Shown: positions 5,551 through 51,766 of the stretch, piece by piece
Position numbering within the stretch: the stretch's first letter is position 1
Layout of the letters: every line of letters begins with the position of its first letter
Source of the DNA: an uncultured Candidatus Saccharibacteria bacterium
GTDB lineage: Bacteria; Patescibacteriota; Minisyncoccia; Phycocordibacterales; Zambryskibacteraceae
Length of the DNA stretch: 64,000 bases
Direction of reading: 5' to 3'
Assembly (NCBI GenBank): GCA_964357635.1
Contig: CAYHLZ010000001.1
Coordinates: 44,917 to 108,916, forward strand
The notes under the pieces: model-generated
What the model saw: the letters and a program-made list of their open reading frames with translations, nothing else
The model's database searches: none
Told to the model about the DNA's origin: nothing
Program-made: the position numbers and the translations under genes

Positions 5551-6252
5551 TTACCTAAGAAGTGCGTCAATTTTACTTTTTACCATATCAATGGGTTCAG
5601 CTCCATTTATTACTGTTTTCTTACCATCGCGAGTGATAATGACAGAGTAAGGAGTTCCTCGTGCACCTGCTTTTACTGCTTCCTCCACACTCTTTGAGAT
5701 AAATTCAGCATGTCTGCCACTTGAGAGACAGGTATTAAATGCTGATTCATTGAGACCGATAGCTGTGGCAATCTTTGGCAACTCTTTTGCGTCAAGTGAG
5801 TCGTTGGAGTTTGTTGTTAAGAAAAGTTTGTCTATATACTTCCAGAAAGCTTGATTACCGCCGAGCTCATTAGCACATTCTGTGGCTTCTGCTTCTTTAG
5901 GTGCCTTAGCATGTAGTTGGACTATAGGAAAATGTCTGTAAACCCAAGAAACCTTACCGGCGTAGTCACGAACGACCTGCTGCATGGTTTGGTGGAAAAC
6001 CTTACAAAAAGGACATTCAGTATCTGAATATTCAACGATTACTAACTCTGCGCTACTACTGCCCAAGATGTGGTCTTTAGCAGTTACCGGAGCGACATCA
6101 ATTTCAGTTGTAGATGGATTTTCTGCCCTTTGGGTGAGTGTGCCAGTGCTGCTACCTCCAAAGTAAATTGCGGCTGCTATAAAGGCACCAGCTACCACAA
6201 TTGCGAGAGGTACGAGGTGTCTATTGAGAGGGCTTTGTTCCATGTTATCCAT
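5551..6252 (-). CDS. DsbA-family thiol:disulfide oxidoreductase, membrane-anchored
   Basis: N-terminal hydrophobic segment then thioredoxin-fold active site TECPFCKVFH (CxxC). Confidence 0.7.
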   Translation of the reverse strand: MDNMEQSPLNRHLVPLAIVVAGAFIAAAIYFGGSSTGTLTQRAENPSTTEIDVAPVTAKDHILGSSSAELVIVEYSDTECPFCKVFHQTMQQVVRDYAGKVSWVYRHFPIVQLHAKAPKEAEATECANELGGNQAFWKYIDKLFLTTNSNDSLDAKELPKIATAIGLNESAFNTCLSSGRHAEFISKSVEEAVKAGARGTPYSVIITRDGKKTVINGAEPIDMVKSKIDALLR

Positions 6253-6286: not shown

Positions 6287-6862
6287 CTAAAAAGGGAGAG
6301 AGAAAGTAAGTTTGTGGTCCTTTGGTTTCTCCCAACCACTCACATCTAATTTAATCTCATTTAAAGCCCCACCTTCTTTAAAAACAAGTTTTTTATTAGT
6401 GAGCGCATATTCATAAAGTTCTTTGGTAAGTCTAACGTCTTCTATACAGTAAGTGCGTACCCTTTCAACGTCTCCCGCCTTCCACCAGTTTATCGCATCA
6501 GCGCCACCACCTAATTTATTTCTACCAAGAGTACCTTCGGCAAGTTGATCTAAGCGCATTCGGCGTCCATAAGAATCTTTTATTTCTTTCAAGATATCTA
6601 AGCTTCTTATTTTTGTTAAGTCTCCTGGGTAGTATTTGTTAAGTAGCGGGATGTCAAAATGGTCAGAATTGAATCCAATAAGCACATCCGCTCTCTCTAT
6701 AATTGGCCAAAGTTTTTTTAACTCCTCTTCTACATATGAAGAGTAAGAGTCTGTATCTGAATCATAGATAGCCACCAAGGCAATATCCAAGAGCGCGGGA
6801 TCATTTTTCCCTACATCAGAAAAAAAGTTCTTAGTCTCTATGTCAAAAACTATTTTACGCAT
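6287..6862 (-). CDS. RNase H-like DEDD-type 3'-5' exonuclease domain protein
   Basis: Motifs IVFDIETKNF (Exo I), FNSDHFDIPLL (Exo II), YCIEDVRLTKELY (Exo III, DEDDy type). Start overlaps stop of upstream hisS-like gene by 8 nt. Confidence 0.55.
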   Translation of the reverse strand: MRKIVFDIETKNFFSDVGKNDPALLDIALVAIYDSDTDSYSSYVEEELKKLWPIIERADVLIGFNSDHFDIPLLNKYYPGDLTKIRSLDILKEIKDSYGRRMRLDQLAEGTLGRNKLGGGADAINWWKAGDVERVRTYCIEDVRLTKELYEYALTNKKLVFKEGGALNEIKLDVSGWEKPKDHKLTFSLPF

Positions 6863-7619
6863 ATGGACCTAGTTTGTGTGTTTCAAGGAAGTCTCGAATA
6901 GTGACATCTCCCATACCAAAACCAACCGCACTTACTGCCGCCACGTCAAACATTTCCAGAAGATTGTCATATCTTCCACCCCCAGCAATAGCTCGGGTAT
7001 TTTCTTTGTTGGCATCAAATATTTCAAAGACCATTCCCGTGTAGTATGTCTGTCCTCTCGCTAGAGTTGAGTCAAAGACAAAATTAGGGCCTATTTCCTT
7101 GAAGTCATCTATGTTGGCATTGTTGATTCTTACTTCAAAATCTTCGTTTCTGGCTCCAAACCCTTTCATTACAGCGCAAGCAAGCGAAAGAATCTCTTTG
7201 TCTCCTTTTACCCCCTCTACACCCAAAAGGTCGCAATTTAGCTGCCAATGTTCTCGCCTTCTTCCTTTCTGCGGTCGTTCATAACGAAACAAATTTGGTA
7301 TAGAGTACCATCGTAATGGAAATTTTAGACTTTTTCTCCTGGCAGCTACCATACGGGCAAGGGTGGGGGTCATTTCTGGGCGTAATGTAACCGACCTGTC
7401 ACCTCTGTCAGTAAAGGTAAATGTTTGTTCGTTTATTATCTCCGCTCCTGATTTTTCAGAATAAATTTCGGTTGGCTCTAAAATTGAGGCGCCATATTCT
7501 ACGTATCCAAAGCTTTCCGAAACCTTTCTCCACGTGTTGAAGATATGGTTCTGGATAGCCATATCCTCAGGATATAAGTCCCTAACACCCTTGTAGGGTC
7601 CTGTATCAAGTTTTGACAT
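6855..7619 (-). CDS. Histidyl-tRNA synthetase-like minimal catalytic core (no anticodon-binding domain, shortened insertion region)
   Basis: Class II aaRS motif 2 FRYERPQKGRRREHWQ and HisRS motif 3 AIAGGGRYDNLLEMFD present. Protein is only 254 aa and ends right after the catalytic core. Confidence 0.7.
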   Translation of the reverse strand: MSKLDTGPYKGVRDLYPEDMAIQNHIFNTWRKVSESFGYVEYGASILEPTEIYSEKSGAEIINEQTFTFTDRGDRSVTLRPEMTPTLARMVAARRKSLKFPLRWYSIPNLFRYERPQKGRRREHWQLNCDLLGVEGVKGDKEILSLACAVMKGFGARNEDFEVRINNANIDDFKEIGPNFVFDSTLARGQTYYTGMVFEIFDANKENTRAIAGGGRYDNLLEMFDVAAVSAVGFGMGDVTIRDFLETHKLGPYA

Positions 7620-11669: not shown

Positions 11670-12887
11670 ATGCCCACCGCCAATACAGTAGAGAAAGAGC
11701 TTGCTCGTGGAACAGGGCTCTCAATTATCAGTCTTATAGACTGTCTTATTGAGCGCGCGCAAGAAGTTCGCGCATCAGATATTCACATAGACCCACTTGC
11801 TGACAAGGTTCGTGTTAGGTTTCGTATTGATGGAGTGTTGCAAGATGTGTATTCTTTTCCAAAAAGTATTCATGCAGAAATAATTTCTCGCATTAAAGTT
11901 TTGGCACGCCTTCGCACCGACGAACATAGCGCAACGCAGGATGGTCGTCTTCGCCACGACCTTTCTGATAAGAAATTTGTTGATATTCGGGTTTCTATAG
12001 TTCCAACCTATCATGGGGAAAATTCTGTTTTACGCTTACTTTCAGACAAGGCCGAAAATTTTGATCTTCAAAGTCTTGGATTTAGTGAGGCAGATAGAAA
12101 AAAACTTCTTTCCGCTCTTAAAAAGCCGAACGGTATGATTCTTTGCACCGGACCCACTGGATCGGGTAAAACCACTACTCTTTATACAATGATAAAAATA
12201 CTGAATTCTCCTGAAGTTTCTATTATCACCATAGAAGATCCGATTGAATATGCTGTTTCAGATGTTGAACAGATTCAAGTTAATCCAAGAACAGGGCTTA
12301 CTTTCGCCAACGGACTCCGCTCAATCCTTAGACAGGACCCAAATATTATTATGGTTGGAGAGATTAGGGATGCCGAAACTGCCAATATTGCCGTTAACAC
12401 CGCGCTCACGGGGCACCTCTTGCTTTCAACTCTGCACACCAATGATGCTGCCACCACACTTCCAAGGCTTTTGGATATGGGTATAGAAACATATCTCGTC
12501 GCCTCAACGGTAAATATTATTATTGGTCAAAGGCTTGTAAGAAAAATATGTGAACATTGCAGAAAAGAGGCACCAGTTTCAGAAGCCTTGAGGGAAGATC
12601 TAAAAAATCACGATCTATTACGCCTCTTTGATAAAGATAGTGCACTCTATCATGGTGTCGGATGTGGTAATTGTAACAATAGTGGATATGCTGGCAGAAT
12701 TTGTATTAACGAAGTCTTGGTGGCCGACGATGAGATAAGAGAAGCTATTCTTCGTAAAGCCTCGGCTGGAGAACTGAAGAAGATTGCAATTAAAAACGGC
12801 ATGACCACCATGCTTGAAGATGGTTTTAAAAAAGCACAAGTAGGGGAAACTACATTAGAAGAAATTCTTAGAGTAATAAACGAATAA
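11670..12887 (+). CDS. pilB: Type IV pilus assembly ATPase (PilB/GspE family, short form)
   Basis: Walker A GPTGSGKTTT, Asp box IITIEDPIEY, Walker B/His box IIMVGEIRDAETA...LLLSTLHTND, C-terminal tetracysteine CEHC...GCGNC typical of GspE/PilB. Confidence 0.85.
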   Translation: MPTANTVEKELARGTGLSIISLIDCLIERAQEVRASDIHIDPLADKVRVRFRIDGVLQDVYSFPKSIHAEIISRIKVLARLRTDEHSATQDGRLRHDLSDKKFVDIRVSIVPTYHGENSVLRLLSDKAENFDLQSLGFSEADRKKLLSALKKPNGMILCTGPTGSGKTTTLYTMIKILNSPEVSIITIEDPIEYAVSDVEQIQVNPRTGLTFANGLRSILRQDPNIIMVGEIRDAETANIAVNTALTGHLLLSTLHTNDAATTLPRLLDMGIETYLVASTVNIIIGQRLVRKICEHCRKEAPVSEALREDLKNHDLLRLFDKDSALYHGVGCGNCNNSGYAGRICINEVLVADDEIREAILRKASAGELKKIAIKNGMTTMLEDGFKKAQVGETTLEEILRVINE

Positions 12888-13999
12888 TGTCTGATAAGAA
12901 ACCCGAAGAAGAGAGCGGTCTGTTGAAAAACTTTTTAAAAAATTTCGGAGCTGGCAGACTTTCAATAACTGAACAGGCTTTTTTTGCCAAGCGGCTATCT
13001 TTCCTTACCAATGCAGGCATCTCACTTTTGGAGGCACTTCATATGATTCGTGAGCAAACTCTTTCTAAGAGTTACATCAGAGTGTTGGATGCCGTTATTG
13101 TGGATGTTTCAAGTGGTCGTTCACTTTCCGACAGTTTGGGTCGATTTGAAAATGCTTTCGGAGATTTTGCTAGAAGTATTATCTCTGTCGGAGAACAGAC
13201 CGGTGCTTTAAGCGAAAACCTTTCATACCTTGCTGAAGAACTTAAAAAAAGACAACTTTTAAGAAAAAAGATTGTGAGCGCTCTGGTTTACCCAATATTT
13301 ATAACTATTGCCACCATAGGCATTACCAGTCTTTTAATTGTTTTTATATTTCCAAAGATTATGCCAATCTTTTTGAGTCTGAATGTTGAACTACCATTCT
13401 CCACCAAGATTTTAATCCTTGCTTCAACCTTTTTAGGCAACTACGGACTTTGGCTTATCTTGGGAATAATTTTGTTTGTAATTGCTTTGCGAATTGTTTT
13501 TAAAAAGAGTGAAAAGTTTCACTTCTGGTACGACAAGGCATTTATGAAAGCACCGCTTATCGGTCCCATGATTCAGAACTATAACTTGGCGAATATTAGC
13601 CGAACCCTTAGCCTACTTTTAAACGGTGGCATGACTCTATCGGAGGCCTTGCCCATCACTTCCAAGTCAACAGCCAGTCTTGTTTACAAATATGAACTAG
13701 ACAAACTGACCCAAGTGGCCAACAGAGGAGAGAAAATCTCTTCTCACATGAAAAATTATAGAAAACTTTTTCCAGATATTCTTTCTCAAATCATATCGGT
13801 GGGAGAGAGAAGTGGCAATCTCTCGGAGACCTTAAGTTATCTTTCTGATATGTATGAGAGCGAAGTGGAGGAGTCAACAAAAAATCTATCAAACATGATA
13901 GAGCCGGTACTTATGGTGGTGATGGGGATTATGGTTGGATTTGTTGCAATTTCCATAATTACGCCAATATATAGTCTTACCCAAGGGCTTCAGAGGTAG
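12887..13999 (+). CDS. pilC: Type IV pilus inner-membrane platform protein (PilC/GspF family)
   Basis: Duplicated GspF-type domain architecture, three TM segments, immediately downstream of pilB with 1-nt overlap. Confidence 0.85.
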   Translation: MSDKKPEEESGLLKNFLKNFGAGRLSITEQAFFAKRLSFLTNAGISLLEALHMIREQTLSKSYIRVLDAVIVDVSSGRSLSDSLGRFENAFGDFARSIISVGEQTGALSENLSYLAEELKKRQLLRKKIVSALVYPIFITIATIGITSLLIVFIFPKIMPIFLSLNVELPFSTKILILASTFLGNYGLWLILGIILFVIALRIVFKKSEKFHFWYDKAFMKAPLIGPMIQNYNLANISRTLSLLLNGGMTLSEALPITSKSTASLVYKYELDKLTQVANRGEKISSHMKNYRKLFPDILSQIISVGERSGNLSETLSYLSDMYESEVEESTKNLSNMIEPVLMVVMGIMVGFVAISIITPIYSLTQGLQR

Positions 14000-14013
14000 T
14001 TCCAAGCTTAAAA

Positions 14014-14490
14014 ATGTTCTGCGACAACCAAACAAAGAAACAGGCCGGGATGACCCTTATTGAGATTCTGGTTGTTCTTGGTCTCTTATCTCTTGTTGGC
14101 GGATTCTCTATCGTCATGGGGGTGGATAGTTATAGGAGCCAAATTTTCCGTTCCGATCGCGACATTCTTGTGAGTGCTCTACACAGAGCTCGTGCTCTTG
14201 CCATGAGTAACGTCTGTTTCGGTGAATCTTGCACCGATGGCCTTCATCATGGGGTGCGCATTGAACCTGGGCGGTTCATCATTTTTCAAGGGAGAGACTT
14301 TAATAATTCAGATGAGCACAACGAAATTATAGAAATGGCTGGCGGAGCTCAAGTAAGCGGAATCACCGAAGTTGTATTTCATCCGCTTTCGGGCGAGCCG
14401 AGCACCACTGGCGATATTATTATTACCGATTCTATAAGCATTTCCACTACAACCATAGGAGCGGAAGGGCAAATTTTTTGGACTCGCTAA
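14014..14490 (+). CDS. Prepilin-type N-terminal cleavage/methylation domain protein (minor pilin)
   Basis: Class III signal QAG|MTLIEILVVLGLLSL with Glu at +5. Confidence 0.7.
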   Translation: MFCDNQTKKQAGMTLIEILVVLGLLSLVGGFSIVMGVDSYRSQIFRSDRDILVSALHRARALAMSNVCFGESCTDGLHHGVRIEPGRFIIFQGRDFNNSDEHNEIIEMAGGAQVSGITEVVFHPLSGEPSTTGDIIITDSISISTTTIGAEGQIFWTR

Positions 14491-14494
14491 TAAA

Positions 14495-16030
14495 ATGAAC
14501 AAAGGATTTTCCACTCTTGAGATAATAATAGCCATGGGTATCATGGTTGCCGTACTCGCATCCGTAGTTTTGGTATCTTTTGGTAGTCAGATGTCTCTTG
14601 TCGGAAGTGAGACAAGTGGTGAAGCACTTAAACGTGCTCAAGCAACTGTTGAGAGGGTACAAGCGCTTGCTCGTAAGGACTTTAACCTTGTAAATGCAAC
14701 CACCTCTGGAGATGGTTTTTACACCGATACTATTTCGGTTGAATTTATGCCGGATTTTCTGACCAAGCAGGTCACAGTTGGTGTTCTATGGCAAAGTGAG
14801 CGCGGACTGGCTCAAAAAGTGGAATTAAAAACTCTGGTAACTGATTTCTCAAGTTCGGTTGGCGGTTCAACTTGCAATTCCTCTCTTTCTGGTGACTGGG
14901 AGAATCCAAGTATCACCACTTACGCGATGAGTGCTGGTGAGCTTTTGCCGTCAAACATATCTGGCAATTTTCCAGTAACCGACGTTGATGCGTATAGAGG
15001 TCGGCTTTATGTTACTGCAGGCCCAACAAGTGCCCCTGCCGACAAAACTCTTTTTATTTTTGATATCTCCGACAGAAGAAGGGCACCTGTCTATATTGGT
15101 GGTACTGACAATGCGGGAAGTACTAGAAGCGGTCTAAATGCCGTAAAAGTGGCTGGAGACTATGCCTATGTTGCTAACGCCCATGATGCAAACTTTAATT
15201 CCTGTTCTGTTGGTCCGAGTTGTTCTCAACTTCAGATTATTGATGTCAACGCACCATCCGATTCGTGGAATCCGGCAATTGTAAATTTGAAATTTGCCAC
15301 ATCTAGCAGTCCGCGAGTGAATGCCTTCGGTGGCGGTGGTCAAGCGGTTGGCAAAAGTATTTTCTATAAAGACGGATATATTTATCTCGGTTTGTCGAAA
15401 ACAGGGAGCGGCCCAGAGTTTCATGTGGTGGATGTTCATAATCCTACAGCTCCGTTTTGGGTGGGTAGCTGGCCCGCTTCTGGCACAAGCTCGCTTCAGC
15501 CGATAAATGGTATTTTCGTCCGTAATGGTTACGCTTATTTAGCTCACCCCACAGACAGTTCAAATACTTTACGAGAACAACTTACAGTGCTAAATGTAGT
15601 AAACCCTCAAAGTTCAACTAGAGTAAGTGGCTTCCATGCTCCCGATAATGAAGGTAATGGGAAAAGTTTGGCTATTGTCGGTGACACAATGTACCTTGGT
15701 AGAACTGTTACAACTTTTTCGGGCAATCCAGAATTTTACGTACTTGATATATCTAATCCGACAGCCATCCCAACCACCTCAAGAGGCAACCATCTGTTAA
15801 ACAACAGCTCAAATGATCTCATTATTCGAGATTCTCTCGCATTTATTCTGACCAACAATAATATTGAGATTAGAAAAATAGATAACTTTCTAAACATCAC
15901 GCCATACTCGGTTCTTTCTTTGTCGGGGATTGGTGTTGGTAGGGCTCTCGACTGCGAAGGTAATCATATTTATGTAGGTTCGGCAGATTCTTCTGGAAAT
16001 GGTTTTATAAGTGTTGTAACCGCACCATGA
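14495..16030 (+). CDS. Modular type IV pilin with LVIVD-repeat (beta-propeller) module
   Basis: Prepilin signal KG|FSTLEIIIAMGIM. Body has repeated blocks ending in (I/V)(L/V)D(V/I)SNP-type motifs (IFDISDRRRAP, IIDVNAPSD, VVDVHNPTAP, VLNVVNPQSS, VLDISNPTA) matching LVIVD repeats. Confidence 0.6.
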   Translation: MNKGFSTLEIIIAMGIMVAVLASVVLVSFGSQMSLVGSETSGEALKRAQATVERVQALARKDFNLVNATTSGDGFYTDTISVEFMPDFLTKQVTVGVLWQSERGLAQKVELKTLVTDFSSSVGGSTCNSSLSGDWENPSITTYAMSAGELLPSNISGNFPVTDVDAYRGRLYVTAGPTSAPADKTLFIFDISDRRRAPVYIGGTDNAGSTRSGLNAVKVAGDYAYVANAHDANFNSCSVGPSCSQLQIIDVNAPSDSWNPAIVNLKFATSSSPRVNAFGGGGQAVGKSIFYKDGYIYLGLSKTGSGPEFHVVDVHNPTAPFWVGSWPASGTSSLQPINGIFVRNGYAYLAHPTDSSNTLREQLTVLNVVNPQSSTRVSGFHAPDNEGNGKSLAIVGDTMYLGRTVTTFSGNPEFYVLDISNPTAIPTTSRGNHLLNNSSNDLIIRDSLAFILTNNNIEIRKIDNFLNITPYSVLSLSGIGVGRALDCEGNHIYVGSADSSGNGFISVVTAP

Positions 16031-16515
16031 AAAAAAACGGCTTCACTCTCATTGAAACTGTTATTTATCTCGGCCTATTTGCCATTATTATGACCGGCGT
16101 TCTTACTGCAGTCTACAGCGTTAGTCAGACTGGCAGTCGGAATCAAGCAAGAGCGATGATTCAGGAAGAGGGGACATATCTTTTGGGGAAAATTGACTGG
16201 GTTCTCTCGGGTGTTAAAACTATAAATCTCCCAATTGGTTCTGGAGATGTCCTTCAAGTTAACACTTTCAATGGCAATGCTATTGAGGTGGGTCTGTCTG
16301 GCTTAAATATATATTTGTCACGCTTACCTAATTCTCCCGAGATACTTAACAATACAAACGTAGAAATAAGCGAGCTTGAATTTATTCACACCGAAGTTTC
16401 TGGTGATGGCATTAACCCAGAAAGCGTTGAGGTTAATATCATCATAACCACTAGGACACAAGATGGATTTCTTTTTTCTCAGAAGTTTTCTACGGTTAAG
16501 TATTTGCACAAATAA
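16027..16515 (+). CDS. Prepilin-type minor pilin
   Basis: NG|FTLIETVIYLGLFAI class III signal; 4-nt overlap with upstream gene. Confidence 0.7.
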   Translation: MKKNGFTLIETVIYLGLFAIIMTGVLTAVYSVSQTGSRNQARAMIQEEGTYLLGKIDWVLSGVKTINLPIGSGDVLQVNTFNGNAIEVGLSGLNIYLSRLPNSPEILNNTNVEISELEFIHTEVSGDGINPESVEVNIIITTRTQDGFLFSQKFSTVKYLHK

Positions 16516-16518
16516 AAA

Positions 16519-18495
16519 ATGCAAGACCTTTCTCCAATTTTAATAACCGGAAAAGATAGAGGCTTTATTGCCCTCATGTCTGTTTTAATTATATCTGCCG
16601 TTGTTCTCACCATCACTGTCACTGCTGGCGCCTCAAGTTTCTACGCCAGATCAAACATGCTTCAGAACGAATTCAAAAGGCAGTCCCTGTCGCTTGCTGA
16701 AGCATGTATTAACGCGGCACTTCTTAATTTGAAGGAAAATTATAATTATGACCCATCTGACGATCGCGTTCTTGTCGGCGACGATTCTTGTTATATTGAA
16801 AGCGTTTCTTCTCCTGATCAGGAATTTAAGAGGGAGATTAGAACTCGAGCCGAGGTGAACGGTTCATTTAGCAATGTCTTAACTGTCGCCGTCGTTGAGG
16901 ATCCAAACCAACCCCCACTAGCGCCACCGGCAGCTTGTTCACTCTCGGTTAACCCATCTCCCATTAATTCTGGCGCTTCTGCTTGGCTTTCTTGGGCAAC
17001 TTCCACGAATGCCACCTCTCTTTCTATAGACAATGGAATTGGTTCGGTTTCTCCATCTTCAAGTGGAGAAGAACTTGTTAGTCCACAAACAAGCATTACC
17101 TACACTGGCACCGCCGAAGGTCCCGGAGGTGCAAGCACTTGTTCCGTTTCTCTTGAGGTTACGCCACCCCCAGATTGTGCTGATTTAGTTATGATGCTTG
17201 ATCGCACGACGAATTTTTCTTCTTTAGATCTTGCTAATGAGCGATTAGCTACCAAGGGCATACTTGAAATGTATGAAGAGACCAACAGTCCTTATCCCAA
17301 GGTTGGTATTGGTCGTTTTGGGGACGGAAACGACGGGGGAGTTGAGGCCGAGATTACCGTCGCAACACTCTCAACCAGAAATATTGTTCCAACAAGTGTT
17401 GGCACAAATAACACGTGGCTTGTGGCTCCAATTGGTGCAACTAAGACAACAGTAGTTTCTCAAGTGGACAATGATACAAGTTACATCTATTCCTCCATAC
17501 AAAATGCTTCACAAACTTTTGTTTTTCCGGGAGCGAGAGTTCCGACAGACGCGGTAATTGAAGCAGTGGCACTAAGAGTTGTGGCACGAACGATAAGTGG
17601 CGAAGACGCAACAATAAAACTTGTGGCTGAGAATGGCACAGAACTTGACGAAGGAGCACCAGTTGCACTTTCAAGTATCTATAATACTTATCTTCGCCGC
17701 ATGACCACCAATCCATTCACCGGTCTACCGTGGACACTTTCTGATGTAAACAACTGGACCACTAGGTTTGGTGTTGTGAAAACCAGTTCAGAGGGCGTCG
17801 CCAGAGTTACCCACGCGTATCTCGTTGTTGAGTATAGGACTGAGATAGGACAACTCAGCAGTGTCTACGGAGATGACGATATTGGAAACGATGGTGACGG
17901 AGATCTCTACGATGCCGTTGAAGAGGCGACAAACCCCGAGCCGTTTGCTGTTGGATTAAGTCTTGCCGATATTATAAATACCGGAGCTTCGGAGCTTAAC
18001 GGGCCAAGACATAGTAGCGATAGAGGAAAGGTACTTCTTGTGGTCTCAAACGGAGATCCCAATGAGCCGACCATTGGTGCTGTTGAGGCAGCTCTAGATT
18101 CTGCCGATGCCGCAAAACTCGCGGGGGTAGAAATTTTCAGCATTTTCTTTGGTTCTGATCGTTCTGGTCTTTCTGGACAAGAACTTCTCGCCGCTCTTTC
18201 GGGTGGACAAGTATCTTCTGCAGATCTTCCGAGTCATTTCCATTTTGGACCCACACATCAGCCAGGCTCCGATGATAATTTTGAGAACACCCCAGATGGT
18301 TATCTTGCAGAAAATAATGATAGCGATCACTTCTTCATTGCCACTAGCTCTCTAAACTTACTAGGTATTTTTGAGACAGTTGGGAAGGTTGCTTGCCCAG
18401 CGGCCGGCACTCCGCCCCCACCTCCACCGCCCCCACCTCCACCGCCCCCATCACCTGTACCCAACATATCTATTACCTCTTGGGATGAAGTTTAG
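16519..18495 (+). CDS. Large GspK-like pilin-family protein with vWA-like module and C-terminal poly-proline tract
   Basis: N-terminal RG|FIALMSVLIISAVVL (pilin-like hydrophobic segment lacking Glu5, as in GspK-type tip pseudopilins). vWA-like strands DLVMMLDRTTNFS, VLLVVSNGDPNE, EIFSIFFGSD. PPPPPPPPPPPPPPSPVP near C-terminus. Confidence 0.55.
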   Translation: MQDLSPILITGKDRGFIALMSVLIISAVVLTITVTAGASSFYARSNMLQNEFKRQSLSLAEACINAALLNLKENYNYDPSDDRVLVGDDSCYIESVSSPDQEFKREIRTRAEVNGSFSNVLTVAVVEDPNQPPLAPPAACSLSVNPSPINSGASAWLSWATSTNATSLSIDNGIGSVSPSSSGEELVSPQTSITYTGTAEGPGGASTCSVSLEVTPPPDCADLVMMLDRTTNFSSLDLANERLATKGILEMYEETNSPYPKVGIGRFGDGNDGGVEAEITVATLSTRNIVPTSVGTNNTWLVAPIGATKTTVVSQVDNDTSYIYSSIQNASQTFVFPGARVPTDAVIEAVALRVVARTISGEDATIKLVAENGTELDEGAPVALSSIYNTYLRRMTTNPFTGLPWTLSDVNNWTTRFGVVKTSSEGVARVTHAYLVVEYRTEIGQLSSVYGDDDIGNDGDGDLYDAVEEATNPEPFAVGLSLADIINTGASELNGPRHSSDRGKVLLVVSNGDPNEPTIGAVEAALDSADAAKLAGVEIFSIFFGSDRSGLSGQELLAALSGGQVSSADLPSHFHFGPTHQPGSDDNFENTPDGYLAENNDSDHFFIATSSLNLLGIFETVGKVACPAAGTPPPPPPPPPPPPPSPVPNISITSWDEV

Positions 18496-18540
18496 AAGCG
18501 TTGCGAAGGCGACGATTAGGTGATAACCTGATAAATATCT

Positions 18541-19047
18541 GTGAACTATTTTCGCGCTGAGACGAATAGAGGTTTTACTCTGATAGAAATACTTATTGTT
18601 ATAGGAATTATTGCGGTTCTCGCCGCTATTGTCATCGTTGCTATTAATCCAGCCAAGCAGTTTGCTCAAGCCAGAAACACTCAACGCACTTCAAATGTTA
18701 ACGCTATCTTAAACGCCATCGGTCAGCGCATTGCCGACAATAAAGGAGTCTTTGCCGGAACATTTTCTATCGGTGGTACGACTTATGATTGCGGACAAAT
18801 TCCCACTGCCACCACTTCCATCACATCAAGGATGGCATCAAGCACTTCAGACACAACTGGCGATATGGGCTGTCTTGCGCCCACATACTTACCTCAACTA
18901 CCAATTGACCCCGCCGAAACTTCCAGCGCAGATGATACCGGTTATGAAGTACAACTGAACAACAGCGGGAGGGTAACGATTTGCGCCCCGAATGCCGCTT
19001 CTGAAAATTCTATTCCCGATCCCGAACCAATCTGCGTAACACGTTAA
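18541..19047 (+). CDS. Type IV pilin (candidate major pilin)
   Basis: Leader MNYFRAETNRG|FTLIEILIVIGIIAVLAAIVIVAINP; four Cys in C-terminal half for disulfide-bonded D-region. Confidence 0.75.
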   Translation: MNYFRAETNRGFTLIEILIVIGIIAVLAAIVIVAINPAKQFAQARNTQRTSNVNAILNAIGQRIADNKGVFAGTFSIGGTTYDCGQIPTATTSITSRMASSTSDTTGDMGCLAPTYLPQLPIDPAETSSADDTGYEVQLNNSGRVTICAPNAASENSIPDPEPICVTR

Positions 19048-19090
19048 TAAAAAAGAAAGACCCGGAGCAGAAGTACTCCAGGCCTTTTAG

Positions 19091-20065
19091 TCACTTCTCA
19101 AATCGGTAAATCCCGAGGTCAATGACGGTTACGCTTGATGCATTTTTGGCCTTGCCGTCCTTTATGTAGACATCGCGGAAGTACGCGTCAATGTTGTACT
19201 CATTTTCCGACATCTCTGTTATGACGATGTCGACAAGGTACGGATTGACCTGATTGTAGTAGCGAAGAGAGTTTGTGTCACCGTCGTTATGTTCGTGGTA
19301 GTCGCGTGACCATCCACTTGGTCCAGACACAGACTCTACCGCCTCACCGTCTTCGGCAGGGTGGGTGTGTACTCCTCCCACACAAGGAACGTAACCGATA
19401 AGAAGAGGGGTTGCGTAACTGTACCTTAGGTCTCTCGAGTCTTCTCTTTCGTTGGGAAACGACACAAAGCGGTACGAGTTTCCTTCGAAAAAGAATAGAC
19501 CACCCTGTTCATCACTTGAATCTTCGGGAAAAAGTGCGGCCACTTCTTTCATAGCTTTTGTGCTTTCGAAGTAATCAACATACCCTTTGAGCAAAAACAA
19601 GATGTGCTGGTTTTCGACTCTATCCAGTTGCTCCGCTCCCTCTTCGTAGTCTGTGCTGGTTCTTGAGACATGTTTACGTTTAGAAAGCTTCTTCTTGATG
19701 TATTTGCGCACAAACTTCACGCCACGGGCAAAGTCAGAGTTCCGTTCCGCACCTCGCTTTGAGCCGTCCATGAGCTCGTCCTCATGACTAAGAAGTGGTA
19801 TGTAGGTGAGGGGCACCGTACCATCTTCAAACATTCGTTTGAGCGGAATGAGATGATAGAGGTAAACCTCATCGAGGAATTCAGGTCGAGCGCCACCCTC
19901 TAGAAGATAGCGATATTCGGGAAGGTATTGCGGCTCAACAGTTTTACCTTTTTCGGCCCGAAGCTTTTCCAACTCACGTAGCCCGGCTTCTTCCTCGGCA
20001 AGGACGCCCCCGGTGGTCAACATCAATACCAACATAAAGAGAGAGAACAGGTTTTTTATTCTCAC
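19091..20065 (-). CDS. Hypothetical secreted protein
   Basis: Signal peptide MRIKNLFSLFMLVLMLTTGGVLA; conserved-looking GGVHTHP segment, no confident family assignment. Confidence 0.4.
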   Translation of the reverse strand: MRIKNLFSLFMLVLMLTTGGVLAEEEAGLRELEKLRAEKGKTVEPQYLPEYRYLLEGGARPEFLDEVYLYHLIPLKRMFEDGTVPLTYIPLLSHEDELMDGSKRGAERNSDFARGVKFVRKYIKKKLSKRKHVSRTSTDYEEGAEQLDRVENQHILFLLKGYVDYFESTKAMKEVAALFPEDSSDEQGGLFFFEGNSYRFVSFPNEREDSRDLRYSYATPLLIGYVPCVGGVHTHPAEDGEAVESVSGPSGWSRDYHEHNDGDTNSLRYYNQVNPYLVDIVITEMSENEYNIDAYFRDVYIKDGKAKNASSVTVIDLGIYRFEK

Positions 20066-20191
20066 AAGATTCTCCTCGTTTTTAGATGTAGGACTATGTT
20101 TACTATGCTCTCAAAGAGCGAAACTTACCTCGTTATACACCACATGCGTTGAATTGTTAAGTAAACCCAGCCTTATTAATAATTTAATGGC

Positions 20192-20209
20192 TGTAAAGTT
20201 GTCTTTACA
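20192..20209. promoter_or_regulatory. Palindromic operator-like site TGTAAAG-N4-CTTTACA upstream of XRE regulator
   Basis: Perfect 7-bp inverted arms 34 bp upstream of the 20243 start; second copy at 20827..20844. Confidence 0.45.
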
Positions 20210-20242
20210 TTAAGCTTTGTTTTTTCTATACTGAAGAGAGTC

Positions 20243-20449
20243 ATGAGCGAAAAGATTAAAAACGAAGTAAACAGACTTAGGACGGAAGCTGGAGTTACTC
20301 AAGAAGAATTAGCCGGGAAAGTGTGCGTTAGTAGACAAACAATTATTGCCCTTGAGAAAGGGAACTACACACCCTCTGTTTTACTGGCTATTAGGATAGC
20401 AAGCTTTTTCAAGATGCCAGTAGAGAAAATTTTTAAAATATCAATATGA
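20243..20449 (+). CDS. XRE-family helix-turn-helix transcriptional regulator
   Basis: Cro/C1-type HTH TQEELAGKVCVSRQTIIALEKGNYTPSVLLAIRIA. Confidence 0.75.
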   Translation: MSEKIKNEVNRLRTEAGVTQEELAGKVCVSRQTIIALEKGNYTPSVLLAIRIASFFKMPVEKIFKISI

Positions 20450-20899: not shown

Positions 20900-21373
20900 A
20901 TGAATAACACCAAACCAATTTTTATTATTCTGGCAATCCTTGTTGTTGCGGGCCTTGGTATTTATGGTTTATCAAAACCAGCCACAGAGGAAAAAGATGT
21001 TGCCATGGAAAAAGAAAAGTTGAGTGAGGTAGCAGCAACAGAAGAGCCAGAGACAATAATGAAGAAAGGCTCTTACGAGACATACAGTTCTGAGAAATTG
21101 TCTCTAGCTTCTACCAATAAGGTTGTCTTATTTTTTAGAGCCTCTTGGTGTCCAACGTGTCGAGCTCTTGATTCAGATATCCGCTCCAATCTTGAAAGTA
21201 TTCCCGAGAACCTAATAATCCTTGACGTTGATTACGATAACTCCACCGCCTTAAAACAGAAATATGGGATTACTCGCCAACACACACTAGTTCAGGTAGA
21301 TGCCTCTGGAGTGGCACTTAACAAATGGACTGGTTCGCCCACACTCTTAAATCTTATTTCAAAAGTAAAATAG
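20900..21373 (+). CDS. Membrane-anchored thioredoxin-like protein
   Basis: N-terminal TM then WCPTC active-site motif. Confidence 0.65.
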   Translation: MNNTKPIFIILAILVVAGLGIYGLSKPATEEKDVAMEKEKLSEVAATEEPETIMKKGSYETYSSEKLSLASTNKVVLFFRASWCPTCRALDSDIRSNLESIPENLIILDVDYDNSTALKQKYGITRQHTLVQVDASGVALNKWTGSPTLLNLISKVK

Positions 21374-21374
21374 G

Positions 21375-23156
21375 ATGACGCTTCTTGCCATATCTTTTTT
21401 CGCCGGAATTTTGACGGTTCTTGCGCCTTGTATTCTGCCGCTCTTGCCGGTAGTAGTTGGTTCTTCTGCTTCTGGGAGAAGTAGGAGCACTCCTTACATT
21501 GTGGTTGGCTCACTCGCCATATCTATAATTCTTTTTACCTATCTTCTTAAGGCTTCCACTGCTTTTATTATGGTACCGCCAGAAGTTTGGACCTATCTTT
21601 CCGGTGGCATACTACTACTCTTTGGTTTAACACTCCTTTTTCCGGGTCTCTGGGAAAGATTGCCAGGTATAAACAAACTCTCGGCTGGTTCAAATAAACT
21701 TCTGGGCGAAGGATATCAGAAGAAAAGTTTCTGGGGAGACGTGATAGTAGGAGCATCTCTTGGTCCAATTTTTTCCACTTGTTCGCCGACCTATTTTGTT
21801 ATCCTTGCTTCCGTTTTGCCCGCTAGCTTTCTTCTCGGTACAGCATATCTGCTTTCATACACCCTTGGACTTTCACTCATCCTCCTCTTTATTGCACTTC
21901 TTGGTGAACGCTTCGCTAGTCGTCTTTCGGGATTCTCCGACCCTCAAAGTAAGTTTAAACGAAGCATTGGGGCTCTCTTTATTGTCCTTGGGCTCCTTAT
22001 TGCTCTCGGGTACGAAAAAAAACTTGAAACAGCTATTCTTGATAGTGGCTTTTTAGACATCACTAAGCTTGAAAACAAACTTCTAAACCGCCTTGATATG
22101 CCAGAAGAAAGCTATTTGCCAGATACCGGATCCGAAGTCATTTCGGAAGAACTAGTAGCCTCGAGTCCAGAGACTACCTCGCCCGCAAAACCCGTGCCGA
22201 AAGTGAAAGGTGTTCCATACAAAGAGATAGTGAAGCCGGCTGGGTTTGTTAATACGAATGACCTTCCTATAAAACTTTCTGATTATGTTGGTAAATCGGT
22301 GATTCTTCTTGATGTCATGACCTATTCATGCATCAACTGCCAGAGAACCTTCCCATACCTAGTTTCTTGGTACGAGAAATATAAAGACGACGGGTTTATT
22401 ATCGTCGGTATCCATACACCCGAGTTTGCATTTGAAAAAGACAAAGAAAATGTAGAAAAAGCGATGAAAGAGTTCGGCATCACATTCCCCATAGTCTTGG
22501 ACAATGACTTTGGCACTTGGAACGCTTATGGCAACCGTTACTGGCCGAGGAAATATCTTATTGATATCTACGGCAACATCGTCTACGACCACATTGGCGA
22601 GGGCGCCTATGAGGAAATTGAAATGAAGATAAAGGAGTTACTTAAAGAACGCGTCAAGGTTCTTGGGGAAGGAGAGATGCCGACTAACGGTGAACTTGTT
22701 TCAAAAACTATATCGCCCCAAGTAACCACTTCCCAAAGTCCCGAAACCTACTTTGGCTCGCTTAGAAACGAATATTTACGAAACGGCATGGTTGGTAGAA
22801 CAGGGGAACAGACTCTTACGGTACCGGCACAAATTTCTCTAAACGGACTGTATCTCGGTGGCACTTGGAACTTTAATGGTGAATACGCCAAGTCGGTTAA
22901 AAATTCAAAAGTAGTTTACCGATACAATGCAAAAGAAGTTTATATCGTAGCCAGTGCTGACAGCGCTCTTGAAATGGAGGTCTGGCAAGATGGCAAACTT
23001 GTGACGGCCGAGGCGGGGGCAGACGTAGTCAATGGCACTGTCACGATTAAAGAAAGTAAACTCTACAAACTTATAAAAAACATTACACCCGGCGAACACA
23101 CCCTAGAACTCCGCGCCGAAGACGGAATACTCCTCTTTGCCTTCACTTTCGGTTAA
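21375..23156 (+). CDS. CcdA/DsbD-like transmembrane thiol-disulfide transporter fused to TlpA/redoxin-like domain
   Basis: N-terminal multi-TM region with conserved Cys (LAPCILPLLP, STCSPTYF) typical of CcdA/DsbD. C-terminal thioredoxin-like YSCINC. Begins 2 nt after upstream trx-like gene. Confidence 0.7.
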   Translation: MTLLAISFFAGILTVLAPCILPLLPVVVGSSASGRSRSTPYIVVGSLAISIILFTYLLKASTAFIMVPPEVWTYLSGGILLLFGLTLLFPGLWERLPGINKLSAGSNKLLGEGYQKKSFWGDVIVGASLGPIFSTCSPTYFVILASVLPASFLLGTAYLLSYTLGLSLILLFIALLGERFASRLSGFSDPQSKFKRSIGALFIVLGLLIALGYEKKLETAILDSGFLDITKLENKLLNRLDMPEESYLPDTGSEVISEELVASSPETTSPAKPVPKVKGVPYKEIVKPAGFVNTNDLPIKLSDYVGKSVILLDVMTYSCINCQRTFPYLVSWYEKYKDDGFIIVGIHTPEFAFEKDKENVEKAMKEFGITFPIVLDNDFGTWNAYGNRYWPRKYLIDIYGNIVYDHIGEGAYEEIEMKIKELLKERVKVLGEGEMPTNGELVSKTISPQVTTSQSPETYFGSLRNEYLRNGMVGRTGEQTLTVPAQISLNGLYLGGTWNFNGEYAKSVKNSKVVYRYNAKEVYIVASADSALEMEVWQDGKLVTAEAGADVVNGTVTIKESKLYKLIKNITPGEHTLELRAEDGILLFAFTFG

Positions 23157-31193: not shown

Positions 31194-32522
31194 CTAGTTG
31201 CCTCGTAGGAAATCTTGCCAACCCATCTCTCGCTTACCAGCGGGGGTAACGCGGACTGGGACAAACTTACCATCTTTTATCTCGGCATCTTTGACTACTA
31301 ATCTAATTTCTTTCCCACTCTTGTTCCTGAAGAACATGTAGGCCGTTGGCCAAGTACTATACGCCAAGACTTTTCTCAAATTTTTCTCTGCAGATTCGTT
31401 TAGGTCAAGAAGTCCGTCTTCTTTTTTTATTAGTTTGGTAAAACTTACTTTCTTCTCATCCTGTGGTATCTCTTTCACTTCTCCCTCAATCCATTTTGGA
31501 AGTAGAACCCCGAGTATTCTACCGCCAGCACGAGCAAGCTTTTCTTCTACGACAGCATAGTGGTCTGGCCAAGGAGTTATTGGAACTCGTGCCTGCGCCA
31601 ATATTGGTCCGTGGTCCACTTTCTCATCCATTTTAATTATCGTTACCCCCGCTTCTTCTTCTGCAAGAATTGTTTCTTGAATAGGTGAGGCGCCCCGCAA
31701 CTTTGGCAGAAGTGAGGGGTGGACATTGAGCGCACCATATTTTGGAAGAGAGAGAATCTCTTTCGGCAAGATTTTACCGAATGATGCTACCACATAAACA
31801 TCTGCATCTAACTTTTTTAATTTATCTGGAGATGGAATATCTTTTATAGAACTTATATTAAGCACCGGAGAAAGACCAGCCACTTCAAGCTCCTCCAGAA
31901 CATATTTTGAAAATTGAGAACTACCGAAGAAGACAAACTTAACCACCGCTTTTAGCGGGGTCCCGCCAACGGCGGTGACCGCTTTCTTCGGTGGGACATC
32001 TTGGACATTTTCTGCATTATCAATGAAAAGAACGCCATTTAGATGGTCTATCTCGTGCTGGAAAATCTGTGCCAGAAGTTCTGATGCGCCTCGCTCAATA
32101 AGTTTCCCTGTTTCGTTGTAGGCTCTCAAAGTTACTTTATCAGCTCTTTTTACCTGCCCGTAGAGCCAACGTATTGAGAGACAGCCTTCTTCCAACTTCT
32201 CTTTTTTCCTAGAAGTTTTAATTATTTCTGGGTTGATAAATACCAAATCTTTCGTTGTCTGAGGCAGTTTTGGCACTGGTCCGACATTTAAGTTTCTTTT
32301 TTTTGTTAACATCAAAACATCGCCTCGGACGATAAAGAGTCTCAGACTCTCACCAATCTGTGGCGCAGCGAGCGCCACTCCGTCTTCTTCGGCATGGAGC
32401 GATGTGTGCATCTTCTCTAGAAGGCCTTTAATCTTTTTTCCACCAATTTCTTTTAGGGGCACACTCTTAGCCACCTTTCTCAATACAGGCGCATCTTTTT
32501 GTAATATTTCTGTTTTTGTCAT
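31194..32522 (-). CDS. Fused peptide deformylase / methionyl-tRNA formyltransferase
   Basis: N-terminal Def motifs GVALAAPQIG, EGCLSI, HEIDHLNG. C-terminal Fmt motifs VVASFGKILP, NVHPSLLPKLRG, GVTIIKMDEKVDHGPIL plus Fmt C-terminal domain. Confidence 0.8.
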   Translation of the reverse strand: MTKTEILQKDAPVLRKVAKSVPLKEIGGKKIKGLLEKMHTSLHAEEDGVALAAPQIGESLRLFIVRGDVLMLTKKRNLNVGPVPKLPQTTKDLVFINPEIIKTSRKKEKLEEGCLSIRWLYGQVKRADKVTLRAYNETGKLIERGASELLAQIFQHEIDHLNGVLFIDNAENVQDVPPKKAVTAVGGTPLKAVVKFVFFGSSQFSKYVLEELEVAGLSPVLNISSIKDIPSPDKLKKLDADVYVVASFGKILPKEILSLPKYGALNVHPSLLPKLRGASPIQETILAEEEAGVTIIKMDEKVDHGPILAQARVPITPWPDHYAVVEEKLARAGGRILGVLLPKWIEGEVKEIPQDEKKVSFTKLIKKEDGLLDLNESAEKNLRKVLAYSTWPTAYMFFRNKSGKEIRLVVKDAEIKDGKFVPVRVTPAGKREMGWQDFLRGN

Positions 32523-47758: not shown

Positions 47759-48670
47759 ATGCAAAAAGTTCTTAGTATTCAGAGGATCCTCCTCGCTCTT
47801 GGAATCTTGGTATTCCTCGGAGCCGCTATCGTCGGTGCCACAGGCGCCTTCTTCAGCGACACGGAGACCTCAACAGGTAACACGTTTGCCGCAGGTGAAC
47901 TCGATCTCACGATTGACAACTCAAGCTACGGCTTCGATTACAATGACCCAAACAACCGCGAACCAATAGGCAATTGGGGTTTAAACGCGTCTAACTCATG
48001 GACTCTTCGAAATCTCAATGAATGTGGTCCGCTGGATCAGAATGGTGCCACGACTACTGGCCCATGTCTCTTCTTCAACTTCGACGACTTGAAGCCGGGA
48101 GATTACGGTGAGGATACCATCTCGCTCCATGTGCAGAACGACGCCTACGCATGTATGGCGCTTAAACTCACAGCAACACCTGAAAATGATGTAAATGAGG
48201 CAGAAGCTGAGGGTCTTCCTGTAGATACAACGCTCGGAAGTGATGAGGGTGAACTTCAGAATTATCTCAACTTCGCCTTCTGGCGTGACGACGGAGACAA
48301 TGTCTTCGAATGTACCAGTGTCGGAGAGGACCAAACAACATGTCTCGCCACGGAACAAATTCTCTTCCAAGATTCAGCAACGAATCTTAGCCAAGTTCCA
48401 AACACAATTGCGGACCCCGGGAACGGACAGGTGTTGAAAGCCGACGATACGTACTATGTCGGCAAGTCATGGTGCTTCGGCAAAATGAGTCAAAATCCAG
48501 TTCAGAACAACGGCAATGCCGCTCCTACTGAAACTACCACAGGATTCACCTGCGACGGTGTAGGCAATCACAATGATGCCCAGACAGATGGTATTGTTGT
48601 GAACGTTGAATTCTCTGCGGTACAGGCAAGGAACAATGCAGGCTTCCTTTGCTCACCGCTACTACAATAA
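47759..48670 (+). CDS. TasA/CalY (camelysin)-like secreted protein with SipW-cognate signal region, paralogue 1
   Basis: Signal peptide then ATGAFFSDTETSTGNTFAAGELDLTIDN (compare Bacillus CalY ...FAFFSDKEVSNNTFAAGTLDL). Shared paralogue block FDDLKPGDYGEDTISLHVQNDAYACM. C-terminal FSAVQARNN. Confidence 0.65.
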   Translation: MQKVLSIQRILLALGILVFLGAAIVGATGAFFSDTETSTGNTFAAGELDLTIDNSSYGFDYNDPNNREPIGNWGLNASNSWTLRNLNECGPLDQNGATTTGPCLFFNFDDLKPGDYGEDTISLHVQNDAYACMALKLTATPENDVNEAEAEGLPVDTTLGSDEGELQNYLNFAFWRDDGDNVFECTSVGEDQTTCLATEQILFQDSATNLSQVPNTIADPGNGQVLKADDTYYVGKSWCFGKMSQNPVQNNGNAAPTETTTGFTCDGVGNHNDAQTDGIVVNVEFSAVQARNNAGFLCSPLLQ

Positions 48671-48831
48671 GTTTATCTCTAGCCCTTCGACAAGCTCAGG
48701 GTAAACCAACCCTGACTCGCGAATAGCCGAATCCGCCCCGATACAGCATCGGAGCGGAGGGGCTGTTCATGAGAACAGCGAGCACAATCGGATTAACAGC
48801 GAATCAGACATTATTAAAATTAAAAATATTT

Positions 48832-50064: not shown

Positions 50065-50123
50065 TTTGCCTTCGTGCTTGTGAGCAGTTTGTTCTTCTTG
50101 GTTTCTGATGACCAGCATAAAAT

Positions 50124-51200: not shown

Positions 51201-51202
51201 TT

Positions 51203-51766
51203 ATGAAAACTCTGCGTAAAACATTTTACGGCCTCTTTATCCTTCTCATAGTTGGAGCAGCAGGACTCTTCCTTGCCACTCTGCTTCCCATTCCAGGGAA
51301 CGTTGAGGTAAAAATTGTGAAATCTGGTTCCATGGAGCCGACGATACCTACAGGCTCTCTCGTCTTCGTCAAACCTAAGGCAGAGTACTCGGTGGGCGAT
51401 ATTATCACCTTCGGTCAAGATACAAAATCAGAAATACCGACGACGCATAGAATAACGGAGGTTCAGGTTGGGGAGGGTGGAACAGTTTTTATGACCAAGG
51501 GTGACGCAAACGAAGAAGGTGACCCACAGCCCGTGCCAGCAAGCGAAGTTATCGGTCTAGTTTGGTTCCACGTGCCTTATGCGGGCTACATCATAGATCT
51601 TGCGAGACAGCCGTGGGGCTTCACTTTCCTTATCGGTATTCCCGCAGCACTCATCATTATGGACGAGGCCTTGCGCATCATTTCGGAGGTGAGGGAGATG
51701 CGTCGTCGAAGACGCGAGGGTACGATCGGACTTGTTAACGAAACAAACAACAATGAAATGCGTTAG
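51203..51766 (+). CDS. SipW-like (ER/archaeal-type, S26B) signal peptidase I
   Basis: N-terminal TM, then VKSGSMEPTIPTGSLVFVK (Ser box), PTTHRITEV (His box), TKGDANEEGD; C-terminal TM. Starts 3 nt after paralogue 3. Confidence 0.75.
   Translation: MKTLRKTFYGLFILLIVGAAGLFLATLLPIPGNVEVKIVKSGSMEPTIPTGSLVFVKPKAEYSVGDIITFGQDTKSEIPTTHRITEVQVGEGGTVFMTKGDANEEGDPQPVPASEVIGLVWFHVPYAGYIIDLARQPWGFTFLIGIPAALIIMDEALRIISEVREMRRRRREGTIGLVNETNNNEMR

Follow-up and report, generated by a model that had tools for sequence, protein, structure and literature searches.

The 64,000-nucleotide (nt) stretch of DNA analysed here (the window) carries a seven-gene type IV pilus (T4P) operon at 11670–19047; nucleotide coordinates are positions within the window unless another locus is named. 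The operon is a standard operon of a large clade of Parcubacteria. It is probably the core operon of a monoderm-type T4P of a groundwater bacterium of the class Parcubacteria/Paceibacteria, candidate phyla radiation (CPR), with two adhesin modules at the pilus tip. The first module is a seven-bladed LVIVD beta-propeller, carried by a pilin of 511 amino acids (aa). The second is an array of immunoglobulin (Ig)-like, von Willebrand factor A (vWA) and beta-sandwich domains, built into a 658-aa pilin without the glutamate at mature position 5 (Glu5). By analogy with characterised pili, the most likely role, and a fairly probable one, is attachment to the cell of a host or partner. Gene content, domain architecture, insertion topology and conservation of the operon are documented below. 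A preliminary description, made from the sequence alone, had seen a compact monoderm-style locus in which two modular minor pilins are candidates for adhesins at the tip; profiles, structure models, synteny and published analogues agree with it.

Operon composition, machinery and conservation

Seven genes lie on the + strand. Neighbours overlap or are separated by at most 45 nt.

11670–12887, + strand: assembly ATPase of the PilB/GspE family, 405 aa, short form; T2SSE Pfam match.
12887–13999, + strand: PilC/GspF platform protein, 370 aa; T2SSF Pfam match.
14014–14490, + strand: minor pilin 1, 158 aa, signal KKQAG/MTLIE; N_methyl at 26.1 bits against a cut-off of 21.2 bits.
14495–16030, + strand: modular propeller pilin, 511 aa, signal MNKG/FSTLE; open reading frame (ORF), profile and AlphaFold2 (AF2) model.
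16027–16515, + strand: minor pilin 3, 162 aa, signal KKNG/FTLIE; N_methyl at 26.3 bits.
16519–18495, + strand: Glu5-less GspK/PilX-like minor pilin, 658 aa, signal KDRG/FIALM; ORF and AF2 model.
18541–19047, + strand: major-type pilin, 168 aa, GTG start, signal TNRG/FTLIE; N_methyl at 30 bits.

The ORFs are as first described, a pilB-like ATPase gene and pilC followed by five genes for proteins with class III signals. T2SSE, T2SSF and N_methyl profiles match, and the signals are read directly in all five genes after pilC. Glu5 is missing only in the 658-aa protein. N_methyl passes the Pfam threshold in the three small pilins (158, 162 and 168 aa), and N_methyl/IPR012902 is undetected by Pfam in the 511- and 658-aa proteins. 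Pilin genes beyond the five are not found by a six-frame motif scan of the window.

The ATPase matches Pfam T2SSE at 421 bits. Its NCBIfam matches to GspE and PilB cover the C-terminal ~380 residues of these families; their long N-terminal domains are absent. Walker A is present, as is a tetracysteine motif CEHC...CGNC (CxxC...CxxC, as in assembly ATPases). The platform protein is a polytopic membrane protein and matches Pfam T2SSF at 183 bits in two stretches and NCBIfam GspF at 284 bits. The 158-aa pilin is weakly GspH-like (TIGR01708, E 1.4e-4, under its cut-off), and the 162-aa pilin has weak N-terminal matches to ComGE and GspI. The N-terminus of the 168-aa pilin matches T4a major pilins (Geobacter PilA-N, PAK, PilE). 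Assignment of the 158-, 511- and 162-aa pilins to GspH, GspI and GspJ was dropped, the N-terminal matches being sub-threshold only.

Pfam was run on 79 ORFs of the window; of the 76 ORFs that reach 110 aa or more, these include all except TypA and eight shadow ORFs overlapping identified genes. Elongation factor P (EF-P, gene efp) is not among these 79 ORFs. Neither the prepilin peptidase PilD (Peptidase_A24) nor a PilT-type retraction ATPase is found among them or in the 10 kb around the operon in five related loci with annotation. The same is true of PilM, PilN, PilO and the secretin PilQ, as far as Pfam detects them (divergent versions could hide). The lack of PilMNOQ noted in the preliminary description is a statement on the 64-kb window only.

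Such a machinery might instead build a short pseudopilus or competence-type pilus, mainly for uptake of DNA or nutrients or for secretion across the cell wall, the modules serving for capture or wall penetration. The best NCBIfam matches of the ATPase and the platform are GspE and GspF, the weak similarities of the small pilins are to GspH, GspI and ComGE, and the missing PilT-type ATPase points the same way. CPR bacteria depend on imported nucleotides, which also counts for uptake. So does the case of TM7x (Nanosynbacter lyticus, Saccharibacteria), in which one of two T4P systems is essential and tentatively tied to DNA uptake (PMC11623550). However, the NCBIfam scores (GspE, GspF, GspH, GspI, ComGE) are all under the equivalog cut-offs, the solved structures closest to the ATPase are the T4P assembly ATPases PilF and PilB (E about 1e-101), and the N-terminus of the 168-aa pilin is T4a-like. 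A type II secretion system depends on a secretin in the outer membrane; the window shows no such protein, and a monoderm-like CPR cell would not be expected to have one. Modules of the vWA and propeller kinds at pilus tips are adhesins wherever tested. A role in uptake or secretion is rather unlikely, and a T4P with an adhesive tip is the preferred reading.

Relatives were sought in one genome per species, with 13 close propeller-pilin sequences. At least 122 species-level genomes encode a related propeller pilin. Eighty loci were kept, all retrieved through this pilin, and belong to Kaiser-, Adler-, Doudna-, Nomura-, Lloyd-, Veblen-, Wolfe-, Lipton-, Brenner- and Azambacteria, Paceibacterota and Minisyncoccia. 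By ORF-level synteny the gene order is near-universal: ATPase, PilC, pilin of about 145–190 aa, LVIVD pilin of 460–560 aa, pilin of about 130–195 aa, Glu5-less pilin with GF[IV]AL[IM], pilin of about 145–190 aa. The propeller pilin has the same operon position in 80 of 80 loci (retrieved, as said, through it). The counterpart of the 168-aa pilin is the last operon gene, and the slots of the 158- and 162-aa pilins are conserved too. The Glu5-less slot is bimodal in length, with about 62 ORFs of 92–233 aa (mostly 123–170 aa) and about 19 ORFs of 657–1408 aa; it is expanded by inserted modules in about a fifth of the loci.

Architecture of the two modular pilins

The propeller pilin consists of two modules.

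14495–14854, + strand: pilin module, aa 1–120, with signal, alpha1 helix and four-strand sheet; AF2, predicted local distance difference test score (pLDDT) >90.
14909–16027, + strand: seven-bladed LVIVD beta-propeller module, aa 139–511; Pfam and AF2.

The 511-aa protein had been described as a pilin N-terminus with an LVIVD propeller, and both profile and model confirm this. PF08309 (LVIVD) matches at 32.8 bits, above its gathering threshold of 20.2, although only a single stretch passes on its own; IPR013211 was confirmed to be LVIVD as well. Most homologues carry PF08309. Tandem repeats of ~42 residues form the propeller, with the two-strand signature 'G-x-YaYva ... l-x-i-iDvsnP' present in all seven blades. 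The AF2 model (104 homologues; pLDDT 93.6; predicted template-modelling score 0.89) has a helix at 3–61, a four-strand sheet at 69–116 and 28 strands forming seven four-stranded blades at 139–509. E9, the mature Glu5, is at least 90% conserved in the 104 relatives. Cys127 and Cys487 are invariant and Cys237 and Cys243 near-invariant, which suggests disulfides among the conserved cysteines. Homologues of 509–511 aa are 93, 66 and 63% identical. More than 580 clusters are significant, and full-length homologues of 470–560 aa number in the hundreds.

The Glu5-less pilin is composed as follows.

16519–16908, + strand: pilin module, aa 1–130, signal without Glu5; AF2 helix 14–73, strands 82–126.
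16921–17163, + strand: Ig-like stalk, aa 135–215; AF2 strands 140–212, pLDDT 85–95.
17176–17328, + strand: N-terminal part of the vWA, aa 220–270, with degenerate loop DRTTN of the metal ion-dependent adhesion site (MIDAS); AF2 and structure matches.
17476–17844, + strand: beta-sandwich inserted in the vWA, aa 320–442; AF2.
17896–18396, + strand: C-terminal part of the vWA, aa 460–626, up to the conserved Cys626.
18412–18450, + strand: run of 13 prolines, aa 632–644; DNA read directly.
18460–18492, + strand: C-terminal strand NISITSWDEV, aa 648–658, last strand of the pilin fold; AF2 strand 650–657, pLDDT about 91.

Short K-like pilins of the same slot (123–170 aa) align to residues 1–135 and 640–658 of the 658-aa protein, including the strand I-x-I-x-S-W-x-E. 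Because the short forms align to both ends, the Ig–vWA–sandwich array is placed as an insertion between pilin strand 4 and the last strand. The vWA module is thus, as judged from the alignment, inserted before the last pilin strand and is not a C-terminal graft. W655 and E657 are at least 90% conserved.

The AF2 model of the 658-aa pilin (60 relatives; pLDDT 80.8) has an alpha/beta domain split into 222–267 and 465–625, with the beta-sandwich, 323–441, within it. Low-confidence, disordered linkers (281–320 and 443–457) flank the sandwich, of which relative P0125 has a homologous copy. Pfam and NCBIfam give nothing significant for the intact sequence, and Pfam gives nothing significant for the Ig-like domain or the inserted sandwich taken by itself. 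T2SSK/GspK and PilX profiles (Pfam, NCBIfam) do not match at E up to 1. Of the earlier designation as a Glu5-less GspK-like protein, the signal FIALM, the slot and the insertion topology speak for it, and a profile match is lacking. Full-length relatives returned by a word-indexed search are three only; in an exhaustive search dozens of proteins match residues 10–290, and thousands match the Ig-like domain alone (about 132–220). The Ig-like domain recurs in up to 47 copies in unrelated huge environmental surface proteins (47 in a protein of 4314 aa).

The vWA assignment stands for the fold and for the family and falls short for the sequence itself. A Rossmann-like alpha/beta vWA fold is present in the AF2 model. 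Relatives P0121, P0124, P0161, P0173 and P0225 pass Pfam VWA at 26–42 bits, and the family profile matches vWA chains of the PDB (E 5e-6). The 658-aa protein reaches 15.4 bits against the cut-off of 23.8 (PF00092) with the insert removed, and has no match when intact. The best structural matches of the vWA model are the tip adhesins SpaC, Mfa5, RrgA, GBS104 and PitA and the T4P pilin PilB, and they span three other pilus classes. The MIDAS reads D228-x-T230-x-N232 (DRTTN), Leu at the Thr position (GLS) and N511 (SNG), against a family consensus of DRTGS / GTN / SDG. An orthologue of 60% identity (locus L007) keeps the DRTGS loop. Because the MIDAS is degenerate, canonical metal-dependent binding of the PilB/integrin type is doubtful here; the 658-aa vWA may have lost metal-dependent ligand binding. 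Conserved cysteine pairs of the family are C63/C91 and C220/C626. Cys220 and Cys626 stand on either side of the vWA and would hold its ends together.

The proline run, first given as 14 residues, counts 13 consecutive prolines in the DNA. It sits in the 28-residue return linker from Cys626 to Trp655. In 52 relatives the spacer between pilin and vWA falls into three classes, of about 50, about 130–168 and about 230–246 residues, and the return linker scales with it (Spearman 0.69, p = 2e-8, n = 52, kinship of the relatives ignored). The shortest return linkers have 17–19 residues without poly-Pro; the middle ones have 28–29 residues and are Pro-rich, or have 56–68 residues with an acidic Cys-flanked insert; the longest, about 118–128 residues, have an extra Ig-like domain and poly-Pro. 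Almost all long forms end in '...PPPPPPP-N-I-x-I-G-S-W-x-E'. Because this ending is conserved in the long forms and linker length tracks the stalk, the tract is best read as a rigid polyproline-II spacer that returns along the stalk and would let the last strand rejoin the pilin sheet. To judge from the relatives, it is a conserved structural element of the family and no oddity.

The proline codons are not homopolymeric. They have a 15-nt period, ccg ccc cca cct cca, in about 2.6 copies, which suggests that the tract grew through duplication of a five-codon unit. Translation of 13 consecutive prolines is expected to need EF-P. In some relatives the return linker carries a Cys-flanked acidic insert, C-S-N-x-x-D-D-D-G-D-G...C, that looks calcium-binding, and in others an extra SpaA_2-type Ig-like domain. 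Examples of relatives with return-linker inserts are P0150, P0153, P0178, P0191, P0261; P0161, P0173, P0188.

The vWA/Ig module of the 658-aa pilin might be structural or regulatory, a mechanosensor or an assembly plug, so that only the propeller would bind targets. The vWA domain of PilY1 has been proposed as a mechanosensor. The degenerate MIDAS would fit, most relatives keeping DRTGS...SDG. A bare pilin of 123–170 aa occupies the slot in about four fifths of the loci, so the cargo is dispensable for assembly, while the propeller pilin keeps its slot in every locus retrieved (all found through it). Yet the gene of the 658-aa pilin is the fastest-evolving of the operon. Orthologue identity is 81–83% for the ATPase, 66–70% for the propeller pilin and 52–60% for the K-like pilin; since divergence rises from the machinery to the propeller pilin and on to the capping pilin, it fits a role of the modules in surface recognition. 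The module content varies freely among genomes (657–1408 aa), as fits a host- or ligand-specific surface module, and the best structural matches are tip adhesins. A purely structural or regulatory vWA is therefore improbable, and two adhesin modules remain the preferred reading.

That the two large ORFs are artefacts of assembly or annotation, a pilin fused by frameshift to a surface-protein gene, is scarcely credible and was rejected: the identical 511-aa protein occurs on four independent contigs (one from a Hainich groundwater 0.1-µm fraction assembly), the 658-aa pilin has orthologues (672 and 657 aa) that share its sequence of modules and its C-terminal strand, the single-chain models are confident, and nothing speaks for an artefact except locus L078. 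The frameshift fusion against which the preliminary description had warned is not found, full-length homologues existing for both proteins. In L078 (OY969803.1, a chromosome of 516,640 bp) the LVIVD pilin is split into 100 + 164 + 202 aa and the K-like pilin into 365 + 128 + 139 + 258 aa; the breaks reflect either decay to pseudogenes or indels introduced by long-read assembly.

Neighbouring genes and related loci

One further feature lies directly after the operon.

19056–19087, no strand: GC-rich hairpin of 14 pairs, between the operon and a convergent gene; pattern scan only.

The hairpin is a possible bidirectional terminator. In the promoter/terminator scan the site counts in total are not above shuffle expectation, and only this hairpin after the last gene is notable. 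The convergent gene (19091–20065, − strand, 324 aa) encodes a signal peptide and has no Pfam match. In the related locus L003 a DUF2177 gene stands where the convergent gene would be orthologous; as L003 has no counterpart there, the convergent gene is placed outside the operon.

A DsbA-like thioredoxin gene (5551–6252, − strand) lies upstream of the operon, and a thioredoxin gene (20900–21373, + strand) and a DsbD-like/redoxin fusion (21375–23156, + strand) lie downstream. Locus L003 shows the same synteny, and L004 also has the DsbA-like gene. Because the pilins have conserved cysteine pairs, these genes may supply extracytoplasmic disulfides.

The region 47759–52706 encodes proteins of 303 and 431 aa with N-terminal matches to Peptidase_M73/camelysin (TasA-like), ORFs of 358 and 324 aa without Pfam match, and a 193-aa ORF resembling S24/S26 signal peptidases. 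It resembles a locus for secreted fibres of the TasA/SipW type and may encode a second surface filament system. In L006, from a Pacebacteria metagenome-assembled genome (MAG), five consecutive T4SS_pilin (PF18895) genes (L006 positions 17738–20440) follow the T4P operon some 6 kb further downstream, and at this distance the two filament systems are neighbours.

A single ORF of 442 aa (31194–32522, − strand) has peptide deformylase at 5–173 and methionyl-tRNA formyltransferase at 233–412, an apparent def-fmt gene fusion. A histidyl-tRNA synthetase-like ORF of 254 aa (6855–7619, − strand) is without an anticodon-binding domain; its counterpart has 413 aa with HGTP_anticodon in L004 and is of the short form in L001 and L003. 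Loci L010, L059, L086 and many TPA_asm loci carry the Parcubacteria-type operon under titles such as uncultured Gammaproteobacteria or Candidatus Saccharibacteria bacterium, which look like generic or wrong taxonomic labels of deposited MAGs.

Proposed tip complex and comparison with known pili

Under the mechanism proposed here, the 168-aa major pilin would be polymerised by the joint action of the PilB-like ATPase and its PilC platform. The 158-, 511-, 162- and 658-aa pilins would form a priming complex ending at the tip, like GspH-I-J-K or FimU-PilV-W-X. Minor-pilin priming complexes start filament assembly and end at the tip, according to passages of PMC11623550 and PMC8179133 that cite Treuner-Lange 2020 and Nguyen 2015. 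The 511-aa pilin would bring its C-terminal seven-bladed LVIVD propeller as cargo. The 658-aa pilin would be the capping GspK/PilX-like subunit, with about 500 residues inserted between strand 4 and the last strand, namely the Ig-like stalk and a vWA that itself holds the beta-sandwich. The rigid proline tract would run back along the stalk, and the final strand ISITSWDEV would complete the pilin fold. Both modules are placed at the tip because a 40-kDa propeller and a 55-kDa Ig–vWA array would fit only there sterically. The tip would then show propeller and vWA, which would bind ligands on the surface of a host or partner cell.

Several points weigh against this reading. The window is without pilD, pilM/N/O and a retraction ATPase. 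Tip location and an I-J-K-like complex are deduced from gene order and the missing Glu5 only, and GspK/PilX profiles do not match the 658-aa pilin. Docking of the last strand on the pilin sheet is drawn from homology to the short forms and a confident DSSP strand. The MIDAS of the 658-aa vWA retains two of five metal ligands. The structural matches of the propeller are generic propellers of the WD40/YVTN kind, and the top 60 include neither a lectin nor PilY1.

Raynaud 2021, in a survey of InterPro, already records both architectures, pilin-LVIVD and pilin-vWA, with several examples from CPR phyla (PMC8179133). Both large proteins are modular type IV pilins in the sense of that survey, the 511-aa protein being pilin plus propeller and the 658-aa protein pilin plus Ig, vWA and beta-sandwich. 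Streptococcus sanguinis PilB is a vWA pilin that binds host proteins, and PilC of the same organism has a lectin module (PMC8179133). In PilB Glu5 is present, the vWA is grafted C-terminally and the MIDAS is functional, whereas the pilin described here is Glu5-less, with the vWA inserted before the last strand, an Ig stalk, a beta-sandwich, a poly-Pro return linker and a degenerate MIDAS.

TM7x, like the present bacterium, is a CPR organism with a T4P whose large minor pilins bear a heptabladed propeller or a beta-sandwich; the CPR class differs, Saccharibacteria there and Parcubacteria/Paceibacteria here. TM7x PilX2 is a minor pilin with a seven-blade RCC1 propeller, needed for efficient host binding and not for filament extrusion, and PilX1 is a jelly-roll minor pilin (PMC11623550). 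Compared by description, the propeller is RCC1 in PilX2 and LVIVD here. PilX2 is reported without a predicted PilD signal, whereas the LVIVD pilin has a canonical G/FSTLE with Glu5.

The 658-aa pilin shares three traits with GspK/PilX: Glu5 is missing, its gene closes the row of four minor pilin genes, and an additional domain sits inside the pilin sheet (for GspK, PMC8179133). The GspK insert is an alpha-domain, whereas most relatives of the 658-aa pilin have no insert and the others carry an Ig/vWA/beta-sandwich array of 500–1250 residues. SpaC, RrgA, GBS104, PitA and Mfa5 (sortase and type V pili) belong to unrelated assembly systems and are without the pilin N-terminal helix.

The tip adhesin PilY1/PilC of T4aP has an N-terminal vWA and a C-terminal seven-bladed propeller. 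The same two module types would occur here at a T4P tip with four minor pilins. PilY1 is a non-pilin protein with an IPR008707 propeller, whereas here the modules are built into two pilins, neither of them of the PilY1 type. Tentatively, and with slightly more doubt than belief, the T4P tip of Parcubacteria/Paceibacteria is proposed to be a two-part, pilin-encoded analogue of PilY1, composed of a constant LVIVD host-recognition pilin and an evolvable Glu5-less cargo slot that takes up Ig, vWA, beta-sandwich and other modules and has a length-matched poly-Pro strut.

Nothing is overturned: modular pilins, propeller pilins in CPR bacteria and vWA adhesins at pilus tips were all established before. 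A literature search on LVIVD together with pilin found nothing related. An LVIVD pilin in a fixed slot of a seven-gene Parcubacteria operon, a capping pilin as a variable insertion slot, a poly-Pro return linker scaling with the stalk and a Parcubacteria/Paceibacteria host-attachment factor were not found described in the literature searched; a paper on parasitism between Parcubacteria and methanogens mentions T4P generically only.

Parcubacteria/Paceibacteria are the largest CPR class. The operon names two surface-exposed candidates for host recognition in them and, by analogy, may be linked to episymbiotic attachment. The capping-slot module is a simple comparative readout that could be matched to host range, and the insertion with its proline strut suggests a route to engineer bulky modules onto pilus tips. 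The two-part tip, if true, would be a previously undescribed design rule for exchangeable pilus adhesins in the largest uncultivated bacterial radiation.

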